In this document: piece after piece, positions 4,689 through 7,600 of the stretch
Numbering within the stretch: the first letter of the stretch is position 1
How the letters are laid out: the number at the start of each line of letters is the position of its first letter
IMG/VR virus record: IMGVR_UViG_3300033463_006479
Span: 128,464 to 192,463 of that record
DNA from: a virus
Taxonomy: Duplodnaviria > Caudoviricetes
Length of the DNA stretch: 64,000 nucleotides
Strand: one strand, 5' to 3'
Made by a program: the position numbers and the translations under genes
The notes under the pieces: model-generated
The model's database searches: none
The model's input: the letters and a program-made list of their open reading frames with translations, nothing else
Told to the model about the DNA's origin: nothing

Positions 4689-4733
4689 ATCTTGTCGTTC
4701 TATAAATTATGTATAAACGAACAATCAAGGAAA

Positions 4734-4810
4734 ACAAGACACTTTGAAATAGCGTATTCATATTAAAAGTATGGTGCTTGTTCATTTAAGGATTGCTGTA
4801 AGTGTCTTTG
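4734..4810 (-). ncRNA. stem-TACAGCAA small RNA, copy 4, with Lys(TTT)-like anticodon stem-loop
   Basis: AAGACAC-TTACAGCAA...AGCAC-CATA-CTTTTAA-TATG...GTGTCTT-G. Confidence 0.8.
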
Positions 4811-4883
4811 TCCACCCGCAGGGATTCGAACCCCAATCTTGAGTTCCGTAGACTCACGTTCTAATCCGTTGAACTACGGGTGG
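4811..4883 (-). tRNA. trnR: tRNA-Arg(ACG)
   Basis: Loop CTACGGA. Confidence 0.93.
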
Positions 4884-4888
4884 TTTTG

Positions 4889-4963
4889 CGGGGGAGGTGA
4901 GACTCGAACTCACAACCATCGGCTTAACAGGCCGCCGCTCTGACCGATTGAAGCTACTCCCCC
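4889..4963 (-). tRNA. trnN: tRNA-Asn(GTT)
   Basis: Loop CTGTTAA, G73. Confidence 0.93.
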
Positions 4964-4969
4964 GTTTTG

Positions 4970-5041
4970 TAGTCCCAGCGGGAATCGAACCTGCATTTAG
5001 AGTTTAGGAAACTCTCGTTCTGTCCGTTGAACTATAGGACT
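4970..5041 (-). tRNA. trnR: tRNA-Arg(CCT)
   Basis: Loop TTCCTAA. Confidence 0.92.
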
Positions 5042-5046
5042 GGATT

Positions 5047-5129
5047 ACAAGGTGCTGGGTAACGAATAACAAAAATGAAACAGAATTTTAATTGTAAATG
5101 CTATGATATTTTTGCTGTATGCACCTTTG
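5047..5129 (-). ncRNA. stem-TACAGCAA small RNA, copy 5
   Basis: AAGGTGC-ATACAGCAA...GCACCTT-G. Confidence 0.75.
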
Positions 5130-5203
5130 TGGATACTGGTGGGACTTGAACCCACGACATCCTGCTTGCAGGGCAGGCGTTCTCCCAACTGAACTACAGA
5201 CCC
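5130..5203 (-). tRNA. trnA: tRNA-Ala(TGC), second near-identical copy with C33
   Basis: Near duplicate of 2607-2683; loop CCTGCAA. Confidence 0.85.
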
Positions 5204-5410
5204 AGAAATACAAGGTTTATGTTCTGACCAGCGTCTTCACCGCCAAGCCAATTTCATCTGTTTACGTCCTCGCAAACCTTGCAAAACAAAGGAGTGTGGC
5301 GCAGTTCACCATCAGCCACATTTAGGGCTTTTTTCTTATGGATAGAATTAAAGCGTAAAAACCTTTCCATATACCGAGCAGAAGTGAAGATTCTGGCGGG
5401 TAATGAAATG

Positions 5411-5483
5411 TCGTCCCAACGGGATTCGAACCCGTGACTCCACCGTGAAAGGGTGGCGACTTAAACCACTTGTCGATAGGACG
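5411..5483 (-). tRNA. trnE: tRNA-Glu(TTC)
   Basis: Loop CTTTCAC. Confidence 0.93.
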
Positions 5484-5848
5484 GTGCGTATATGCCATTC
5501 CATTCGGACACTATCGCATTATAGCAAACGTGCGGTAATGTAGAACGTGGATGCGATTGTGTCGCCGCAGCAGTTTTTACATTTTCTTATTGCTTCTCGC
5601 TGAACTGTGGCCAATCCAAACCAAACGGCATATAAGGAAACCGCAGGTAAGTATAGTTGTCTTGCATCGGCGGGCGGTTTCGTATGACCGACACAAATGT
5701 CTCTTGGACGTTATGTTCGCCGCACATTGCGGCATTGCTTGACTGACGGGCGGTTTGACACCTACCGTTCCGACAGCTGCAACCAGTATATATCATTTCA
5801 ACTGGATTTAGAAAACTATGATTTACAAAGGTTTAAAGACTTCCTTAA

Positions 5849-6603
5849 CCTACCACACTATGTTACCATAGCCAAATAATATCACCAAAACAGTCTGAAA
5901 CAAATCAGTTTTCATACATTTGTTACACACTTTGTATCAGGTGTGCAGCCGTGACAGCTCTGTTTTATTATCTGTTGTGGTCTGGAGCACATTATAGCCA
6001 TATCGGAAATTCTGCGCAGTTATAATAACATTTTAAATTTAATGAATTGTTGAGGGTCATACCCGCTCTACCGTATAGAATAATCAAGTAAATAGACCAT
6101 TCTTTCTTGTTTCATCCTGCCACTACTTTTTAAGTCTGTTGTCAGACAGTCATCCATAGTTGGGCAGTCCGCAAGCGTAAATTTGGTGTTACGGACACCT
6201 ATTATTAAAAATTCCGACTGTAGGCTCGTCCTCTATGCTCTCTACACATTTATGATAATGTTTTTCAATCAAAGAATTGCCATCATCTGATTGAAAACAA
6301 GGCAGCAAAAGGGGATTCTACGCAGGCAATTTATTCTCATAGCCCGATTCTCTTTTGCCGCACATTATCATTTTAGCACGGTATTGTCCCCGCACGTTAT
6401 TGGTTAGTGCTGCCGCAGACATCACAAACAAATTCGCTTATGACGGCTGCTGGCGGTATGATGATAAAATGTGTACGGTGTTGCGATTTGGCCATAAGCC
6501 AGAACGGAACTGCACAACACGTTATCGTCAATGGGGATGTCCACCGTTTTAGGGACGTTCTACTACGGGTTGTTCACGCCGTAGCACTCCAAATATAAAT
6601 TCA
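5849..6603 (-). ncRNA. ORF-less group I intron
   Basis: P1 CGCTTTGAAT/ATTTGGAGTG with U.G; P2 CTACGG/CCGTAG; P3 CGTCC/GGACG; P AACGGTGGACATCCC; Q GACAATACCGTGCTAA; R AAATGTGTAGAGAGCAT; S ATAATGTGCTCC; P8 AGCC..TCGGAA/TTCCGA..GGCT; P9 ACCAC...GTGGT then terminal G. Splice sites approximate. Confidence 0.85.
6071..6201 (-). ncRNA. orphan TnpB omegaRNA-like module (IS607/RAGATH-18-type) in intron P8 loop
   Basis: Hairpin GGTGT-CCGTA-ACACC; TACG-CTTG-CGGA-CTGCC...GGCAG-GATGAAA-CAAG; terminal hairpin + ATACGG complementary to loop CCGTA. Confidence 0.7.
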
Positions 6604-6667
6604 AAGCGGGTTGGTGAGCATCTTGCAGAAATTCTGGAAGATGCCGCACACTCCCGTCTGATACGTT

Positions 6668-6788
6668 TCGTATGGAGAAACGGGTTTCTCCTTCTTGTTT
6701 CCACCTGCCGACACTTCTTGGATTCATTTCTGAACGCAATATGTAATCTGGCAGTCCGCAAGCGTTACTTCGGCGGTACGTCCGCCTA
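6668..6788 (-). ncRNA. orphan TnpB omegaRNA-like module, upstream copy
   Basis: Hairpin GGCGG-ACGTA-CCGCC; AACG-CTTG-CGGA-CTGCC...GGCAG-GTGGAAA-CAAG; hairpin GGAGAAA/TTTCTCC + ATACG. Confidence 0.65.
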
Positions 6789-6861
6789 CCATCCGATTGT
6801 CGCATCTGTTTTGGCAACGCCTCCACAGAGCATCGGAATTTCCTTATAGTGCCTTTCGCCA

Positions 6862-7380
6862 ATATGTCAAAGAACTTTGTTCTTATTCCAATATAATAAA
6901 AAATTCGAGAAATCGTGAAATGTTTTTGTCAAATGACCGCCTCTCGGTTTTCATCATATTTTCAAAGAACGCTGCGTATTTAATATAATAAAAATTTTCG
7001 GAATATGCAAAATGTTTTTGCAAAAACTTCAGTTTTCATCATATCAAAGAGCCGCATTTTAGTTTCGCAGTTGTTATCAAAAACAACGCTGCAAAAATAC
7101 AACTTTTTTTAATGCTGTCAACAATTTCGTAAAAAAGTTTTCAACAAAGTTATCAACAGCCGTTGTGTTTCATATCTTCAAAGAACGTTACTCAATCAAT
7201 ATAATAAAAATTTTGAAAAATGGAGAAAACATTGCAACATTTTTCGTTTATCATATCAAAGAGCGTTTTGCCGTTTTTTAGTGTCGGCGCATCACTGTCA
7301 TAATGACTTTGCAAAGATACAACCTTTTCTAATAGTGTCAATACATTTTTCAATAAACTTATCAACAGAGTTATCAACAA
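6862..7380 (-). promoter_or_regulatory. five tandem promoters, each followed by a boxA antiterminator
   Basis: TTGACA..TAnnTTTGC at 7341-7311 and 7121-7091; TTTTTATTATATT at 7198, 6982, 6890; G(T/C)TCTTTGA at ~7264, 7186, 7052, 6970, 6875. Confidence 0.8.
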
Positions 7381-7436
7381 TCTTATTTAATTCAACATTC
7401 ACAATATCAGCAATTTCAATTATCAAAACAAACAGC

Positions 7437-7471
7437 AAAAAAATTGGCGGCATATTTTTGATATACCGCCA
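7437..7471 (-). terminator. intrinsic terminator
   Basis: TTGGCGG/CCGCCAA hairpin followed by T-run on minus strand. Confidence 0.7.
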
Positions 7472-7600
7472 ACCGAATATTTTTTGTACGATATATCGCA
7501 TCACGAACCATATTCGTCATTATAGTTCGCCCAAAAGAGTTGTGATTTACTTGGTCGGATATCGTATAGCTTTGTCATAGTTACTATCGTTTTTTCTTTT

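Follow-up and report, generated by a model that had tools for sequence, protein, structure and literature searches.

Introduction

Group I introns of type IC3, the type found in tRNA genes, are known from cyanobacterial tRNA-Leu(UAA) and Azoarcus tRNA-Ile, and they have in common with the element described here a P1–P9 core of paired regions (P) connected by joining segments (J), as well as the lack of an open reading frame (ORF). This element, 755 nucleotides (nt) long, lies on the minus strand of a 64,000-nt stretch of DNA (the window), which constitutes the final 64 kb of a 192-kb virus record from cattle gut (IMGVR_UViG_3300033463_006479; estimated 70% complete). Along that strand, an AT-rich, repeat-rich, promoter-like zone (~7900 to 6870) is followed by an ORF-free 1.4 kb (6860 to 5484) and a 17-gene tRNA array; the element is located inside the ORF-free stretch, which forms the non-coding leader of the tRNA operon of a rumen giant phage, and the coordinates of all its parts refer to the minus strand of the window. 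It is quite probably an ORF-less group I intron of IC3 type, predicted to be active, which is lodged in the operon leader mainly as a tolerated selfish element with incidental processing, and the compact members of its lineage split phage-like tRNA-Leu(UAA) genes.

Likeness to the published IC3 layout extends to a P7 with a bulged A followed by G-C and A-U pairs, A-rich J4/5 and J5/4, receptor-like flanks of P8 and a GNRA hairpin before the terminal G, and the closest relatives found (L046 and L052) split tRNA-Leu(UAA). By contrast, IC3 introns measure ~200–250 nt, whereas the 755-nt element carries long P5, P6, P8 and P9 extensions, its distal P7 is changed on both strands, and it resides in a non-coding operon leader instead of a tRNA. 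In Azoarcus, moreover, circles form after splicing and at internal sites, unlike the full-length circle described below. The Azoarcus helices used in this comparison were taken from a published list (PMC13168695).

IStrons (CdISt1, BcISt1 and the C. botulinum IStron), in which a group I intron is fused to an insertion sequence (IS) of the IS605/IS607 kind, offer a second point of comparison, since they also bring together a group I intron and a TnpB omegaRNA on one RNA. Intron and guide RNA on one transcript have been described for these elements (10.1101/2023.11.20.567912), ORF-less derivatives and full-length circles are known, and full-length circles have been found for the bacterial IStron BcISt1 (PMC4227781). 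However, the IS part of IStrons follows the core and ends at the 3' splice site, whereas the scaffold in the present element lies within the loop of P8 and stops 220 nt short of the 3' end; neither tnpA nor tnpB is attached, and the matching TnpB lies 63 kb away. The element holds no ORF and just a 137-nt scaffold in L8, which is absent in sister strains; because these strains carry the intron without the IS part, the intron is not an IS vehicle, and the element does not qualify as an IStron as these are defined.

Full-length circles of nuclear group I introns (Didymium and others) contain every intron base, with the terminal G joined to base 1, as is the case here. Those introns reside in protist rRNA genes, whereas this one belongs to a phage and its circle comes from cattle and sheep gut and rumen RNA libraries. 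Group I introns are also common in large Bacteroidota phages, including gut jumbo phages (Jug, crAss-like), where they have been confirmed by metatranscriptome reads (PMC12880540); they occupy terL, nrdD and DNA polymerase genes and average ~206 nt, in contrast to the 755 nt and missing host gene of the present case. Group I introns in large gut phages (PMC12880540), tRNA introns, ORF-less IStrons and full-length circles are therefore already known. In the literature searched, no 755-nt ORF-less member in an operon leader without a gene to restore was found, nor was such a full-length circle recovered across several gut or rumen metatranscriptomes, nor a TnpB scaffold lodged in P8 with its cognate TnpB in trans.

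A full-length intron circle

The stretch is contained wholly or partly in 20 public runs, 6 of which are RNA libraries, and contigs of four RNA runs (X7, X16, X17 and X20), from four studies covering cattle and sheep gut, were compared with the window; such contigs tell neither where an RNA ends nor how abundant it is, and they cannot prove that a form is absent. Contigs of all four runs join position 6602 back to 5848, a step of 755 positions with a 1-nt ambiguity. On the minus strand, this joint connects the terminal G5849 to U6603, the first intron base, and corresponds to a 755-nt full-length circle of the kind produced by terminal-G attack. The X7 contig is a closed cycle of 784 nt (755 plus a 29-nt overlap). 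Cycles in X16 and X17 are ~615 nt long, with 60 letters replacing 6022–6208 and a difference in another peripheral part. The omegaRNA scaffold is replaced by 60 letters in contigs of X16, X17 and X20 (like L045 in X16 and X17).

The ends of the circle junction are identical to the borders 5849–6603 (minus strand) that a sequence-only reading of the stretch had assigned to a group I intron, and they fix a 5' exon ending in U, with the P1 wobble, and an intron ending in G. Such full-length circles are described as products of a pathway via hydrolysis of the 3' splice site, by which the exons are left unligated (PMC6274462). Variant circle junctions, seen as loose ends of run contigs, also retain the guide motif GGAGUG; among run variants the region of the classical 'R' block stands out as a conserved island, and the P6 extension is swapped for other inserts with complementary ends. 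Contig cover is little or none at 7050–7500 and over the tRNA genes at 4700–5450, and contig depth differs between circle and flanks; neither observation, coming from contigs, counts as evidence. The conserved core falls within the circle, which led to the rejection of a permuted-intron or circular-exon reading.

Organization of the ribozyme core

Every helix of the P1–P9 core can be placed on the sequence (Table 1), in the canonical P3–P9 order, with a P3/P7 pseudoknot and a guanosine-binding P7. The P7 helix was correctly recognised as a variant in the sequence-only reading: G(A)GAGCAU (6242 to 6235) faces GUGCUCC (5990 to 5984) in seven pairs with one bulged A. The bulged A6241 followed by G-C and A-U pairs represents the guanosine-binding arrangement, and P7 pairs at 7/7 positions in all four sequences compared. 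No internal ORF matches Pfam, also with TAG read as Q, in agreement with the reported lack of an endonuclease ORF.

P1, formed by CGCUU/U and the guide GGAGUG, pairs at 6/6 positions, of which L045 retains CUU/U only. L046 and L052 share this layout, with the guide GUGGGUC one base ahead of P2. The P8 flanks listed in Table 1 presumably represent the 11-nt tetraloop-receptor arrangement, as in IC3 introns such as Azoarcus. At the equivalent place, L046 has CCUAAAC...GCAUGG, with a weak Rfam match to receptor-containing RNA. Before the 3' tail, a GNRA hairpin is present in all members, and in L046 and L052 it reads CUAC-GAAA-GUAG ahead of the terminal G. A second GGAGUG hexamer occurs in the 5' exon (6649–6654, minus strand), where it could compete for the P1 strand CGCUU; it is not kept in L045.

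Table 1. Parts of the element and its flanks, listed 5' to 3' along the minus strand of the window.
Feature	Coordinates	Strand	Remarks
Module A, older omegaRNA-like scaffold	6664..6793	-	In 5' exon, 60 nt upstream of 5' splice site; no ORF
5' exon end CGCUU	6604..6608	-	P1 5' strand; U6604 in U-G wobble at splice site
Intron	5849..6603	-	755 nt, ORF-less, group I (IC3-like); circle joint; no Pfam-matching ORF
Internal guide GGAGUG	6585..6590	-	13 nt into element, directly before P2
P2 hairpin CUACGG/CCGUAG	6563..6584	-	L046 and L052 sequences differ, 8/8 paired
P3 5' strand (6557 to 6553), J3/4 CUAAA, P4 5' strand (6547 to 6542), A-rich J4/5, P5 5' strand (6537 to 6533)	6533..6557	-	
P5 peripheral extension	6392..6532	-	~140 nt, variable; compact relatives without it
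P5 3' strand, J5/4 CAA, P4 3' strand (6383 to 6378), conserved GCUAAAA, P6 5' strand (6371 to 6362)	6362..6391	-	
P6 extension (6361 to 6262) and P6 3' strand (6261 to 6252)	6252..6361	-	
J6/7, P7 5' strand (G6242, bulged A6241, G6240...U6235), J7/3 AGA, P3 3' strand (6231 to 6227)	6227..6251	-	Classical 'R' block
P8 domain: flanks CCUACAG...UAUGG, P8 (6217 to 6212 with 6008 to 6003), helix P8a, L8 loop	6003..6224	-	
Module B, TnpB omegaRNA scaffold in L8	6070..6206	-	No tnpB ORF attached
J8/7 and P7 3' strand GUGCUCC (5990 to 5984)	5984..6002	-	Classical 'S' block
P9 region: variable extension, GNRA hairpin CUAUG-GUAA-CAUAG (5871 to 5858), tail UGUGGUAG, terminal G5849	5849..5983	-	
3' exon	5484..5848	-	Non-coding, intron to tRNA-Glu

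Homologous introns in tRNA-Leu(UAA) genes

Compact relatives were recovered by a metagenome scan with an 18-mer of the P7 3' block, namely L046 (identical to L051), with an insert of 234 nt, and L052, with an insert of 232 nt. Both lie in tRNA arrays, and the L046 contig resembles phages in also encoding an HNH endonuclease and a dCMP deaminase. Exact removal of the insert restores a tRNA-Leu(taa) gene, as recognised by ARAGORN, in L046 and in L052, while the unspliced L052 yields none. The 22-nt block J6/7-P7-J7/3 and the GCUAAAA motif are identical in the window, L046 and L052, the 27-nt block J8/7-P7'-J7/9 is 96% identical in both relatives, and all three blocks follow in the same order. 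L046 and L052 are therefore true tRNA introns and the window element is their homologue, owing to these shared, ordered blocks and to the restoration of the tRNAs.

Because MAFFT could not align the 755-nt form with the 234-nt forms, pairs were counted by script on the located helices. P3 reads CGUCC/GGACG in the window and GAAACC/GGUUUC in L046 and L052, which amounts to three double compensatory changes, and the first pair of P4 changes from A-U to U-A, one further double change. P2, P6 and P8 have wholly different sequences in L046 and L052, all of them paired, and P2 shows two double changes between these two relatives. As P3 crosses P7, this covariation supports the pseudoknot that defines the fold, and homology and covariation together back the group I identity proposed from the sequence.

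Other searches returned no further members of the lineage. Exact-pattern scans of IMG/VR with seven patterns gave no relatives and chance matches at most, the scan of GTDB genomes gave one chance match in a GC-rich coding region, and the first metagenome pattern, which ended in a base without counterpart in the tRNA-Leu relatives, gave 0 matches; a search for related loci by the neighbouring protein found none.

The introns of L046 (2578–2811) and L052 (952–1183, minus strand) are located between anticodon-loop positions 33 and 34 (CU/UAAAA), whereas the classical site is 34/35, and the L052 tRNA has a short variable arm despite its UAA anticodon. In addition, at a loose end before 5853, an X16 contig joins a window-type intron 3' end (…CAUAGUGUGG) to an apparent tRNA 3' half comprising an anticodon-stem strand, a variable loop and a T arm; window-type introns therefore occur in rumen tRNA genes too.

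Variation among sister strains and in the exons

Three sister strains (L042, L043 and L045) come from contigs that encode close homologues of the 282-amino-acid (aa) protein neighbouring the element, and in all of them the intron occupies the same site. L042 (98.8% identical) and L043 carry the same element, and L045 carries it without 6073–6208. Between the window and L045, core helices and joiners are 100% identical, compared with 91% identity for the neighbouring protein. Leaving the missing scaffold aside, 38 intron positions differ in L045, and L042 adds 4 of its own. These differences are confined to the P5 extension, the P6 region, L8 and the P9 extension. The P6 3' strand of L045 carries three substitutions, each from a Watson-Crick to a wobble pair, and is still paired at 10/10 positions. 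In the P5 extension, the comparison with L045 reveals 15 substitutions (16 with position 6396), and covariation is not convincing (five pairs broken, no double changes). P8a, the helix that closes L8, is kept with and without the scaffold through two double compensatory changes, identified by eye.

The exons behave differently on the two sides of the intron. Within the 60 nt between module A and the 5' splice site, the window and L045 differ by a 15-nt and a 12-nt indel and by substitutions, and CUU alone is conserved directly before the cut. Because the 5' exon varies as far as the cut itself, a conserved structure dependent on precise re-joining of the exons is disfavoured; the pattern fits an intron that requires just 3–4 bases of guide pairing. 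The 3' exon, on the other hand, shows 4–5 differences in ~370 nt among the window, L042 and L045, and RNA-library contigs (~270–350 nt) cover it at ~5472–5822 in all four runs. Two AAACCGCCCG motifs lie within it, as does an end-pairing between 5489–5508 and 5615–5634. The exons ligated across 6604–5848 yield neither a tRNA nor a transfer-messenger RNA in ARAGORN, so that the flanks indeed rebuild no tRNA, as had been noted, and a degenerate tRNA was dropped as the host of the intron.

Two omegaRNA-like scaffolds

Across 148 aligned positions, which take in 137 nt of the window, the scaffold in L8 (module B) shares 85% identity with the 3' end of the TnpB locus L010, an intact 433-aa TnpB with HTH_OrfB, OrfB_IS605 and TNB domains at 71.5 kb of the same record (G000:C1). 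The matching region comprises the last 130 nt of the gene and the bases just beyond it, the edges of the homology are sharp, and both scaffolds share the same predicted fold. L045 represents the empty state: its loop already contains the sequence (UAGAGCGGG...) that comes after the scaffold in the window. The would-be guide is therefore the intron's own L8 sequence, as expected for the right end and flank of an IS605-type element. Set against the definition of an omegaRNA, module B has the fold and the 85% identity to L010, but no adjacent tnpB, and the bases that come next are those of intron L8. We infer from these comparisons that it is a lineage-specific remnant of an IS605-type TnpB element inserted in L8; judging by the relatives without it, the omegaRNA module is not an original part of the intron.

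Module A matches the L010 scaffold at 69% identity, with covarying stems and the same predicted fold. L045 retains it with hardly any change, whereas the bases directly after it differ. For the would-be guides of both modules, no second match was found in the 192-kb record.

The 192-kb record contains seven TNB-domain matches (L007–L013), six in open frames of 408–589 aa and one in a 94-aa frame, and L010 is the only one of these seven loci with a module B-like scaffold. Among phage records, DNA matches of the window (blastn) are limited to Lak megaphages of Prevotella and to the omegaRNA part. The Lak-A1 match to module B (L001, 1881–3140) is the 3' end of a TnpB gene with one in-frame TAG, which is consistent with the TAG recoding reported in Lak phages.

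Proposed mechanism and alternative explanations

According to the favoured reading, the intron would have landed in the leader at a CUU/U site that pairs with its GAG-containing guide. The ribozyme would hydrolyse the 3' splice site, and the terminal G5849 would then attack the 5' splice site (the 'circularisation pathway'), with a full-length circle and two unjoined exon RNAs as products; ordinary GTP-started splicing may proceed in parallel. As a side effect, the leader with module A would be severed from the downstream RNA and the tRNAs. The intron would be mainly a tolerated selfish element because nothing needs restoring.

Several points weigh against this reading. The Rfam group I model RF00028, by which the identity of the element was to be checked, does not match it at the gathering score, at E<=10 on 2.1 kb (5300–7400), at E<=10 on 411 nt (6205–6615) or in the whole record. 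This negative says little, because bona fide tRNA introns of the same lineage are missed too, as the control L046, which splits a tRNA, demonstrates. The covariation rests on only two sequence sub-families. Furthermore, a ligated-exon joint, which would skip 755 positions, is not among the 15 joints listed from the RNA-run contigs, although contigs cannot show absence. Finally, leader and 3' exon are almost perfectly conserved, which may indicate that the RNA around the intron has a function and that the intron's cuts have consequences.

The strongest alternative, although it is unlikely on balance, is a domesticated processing or circularising device that produces a stable circular RNA and cuts the leader at two fixed points, with no re-joining. 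In this lineage, where the circle carries the scaffold, the TnpB encoded at 71.5 kb would thereby gain an omegaRNA protected from nucleases, and module A would acquire a defined 3' end. The idea draws on the full-length circle as a product of the exon-unligating pathway (PMC6274462), with which a processing role would be compatible, on the shared intron site in L042, L043 and L045, on the maintenance of P8a by compensatory changes after scaffold insertion, on an intact TnpB with an 85% identical scaffold in the same genome, and on a nearly invariant module A and 3' exon. However, the same circle junction is formed by variants without the scaffold, the would-be guide is the intron's own loop, as it would be in a plain IS remnant, and has no other match in the 192-kb record, and, according to the literature, group I introns generally give rise to full-length circles as a side product. 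Release of the omegaRNA does not account for the circle, because the scaffold-less X16 and X17 contigs show the same junction. The processing role suggested in the sequence-only reading divides into excision and circularisation, which are seen in the RNA libraries, and omegaRNA release as the purpose of the circle, which the scaffold-less variants contradict; the earlier observation as such is confirmed, and its interpretation is partly supported.

A more specific proposal, that the ribozyme was recruited to form a long-lived circle presenting the TnpB scaffold, a natural ribozyme-circularised omegaRNA for a TnpB acting in trans, for instance against insert-less sister phages, is doubtful.

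Less probable still is an intron that interrupts a structured non-coding RNA of ~600 nt (6860 to 6604 plus 5848 to 5490), similar to ROOL, that requires re-joining. Both flanks are non-coding, are represented among the RNA-library contigs and hardly vary from strain to strain, and the leader begins with a 10-bp stretch perfectly complementary to part of the 3' exon (6852 to 6843 with 5640 to 5631). Yet a single complement of this length is at chance level in 1.4 kb, no Rfam family, ROOL and GOLLD included, is found on either flank (5300–7400, E<=10), the 15-nt and 12-nt indels and the substitutions fall in the last 60 nt before the splice site, and an exon-ligation joint is not among the 15 listed, with the limit on contigs given above.

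A circle formed without a group I ribozyme, whether at the DNA level, by tandem duplication or excision of an IS-type circle, or from RNA ends cut by a nuclease and joined by a ligase, could draw on the Rfam negative, on the IS605-type remnant inside the segment and on a junction known from RNA-library contigs alone, which also weighs against the favoured reading, but it is very improbable, and a DNA origin of the joint unlikely, given a junction overlap of just 1 nt with no repeat for recombination, a terminal G joined to the base after the guide-paired U as group I chemistry requires, an internal and dispensable IS remnant, homologues that split tRNA genes exactly and a core that covaries.

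Significance

Group I introns of large gut phages are normally viewed as neutral passengers in genes that need repair, and here there is nothing to repair. An invariant core and a full-length circle in four independent RNA libraries make this element a clean natural case in which to ask whether phages use intron circles and unligated-exon processing. It also represents a second route, besides IStrons, by which a TnpB scaffold and a group I ribozyme come to lie on one RNA, and should the circle bind TnpB, engineered circular guide RNAs would have a natural equivalent in it. In practical terms, Rfam's single group I model misses the whole lineage, tRNA-splitting members included, so that such introns are probably annotated too rarely in phage tRNA arrays.

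RF00028 has sub-threshold yet significant matches (46, 33 and 29 bits) in Lak-A1 (MK250015, 209334–209571) and Lak-B1 (MK250020, 162.7–165.1 kb; L036–L040). As ordinary introns of the GACUA type, these were of no help as comparators for the present element and were set aside. All of them have the usual GACUA-type P7, several lie within 2.5 kb in Lak-B1, and the records leave them unannotated.
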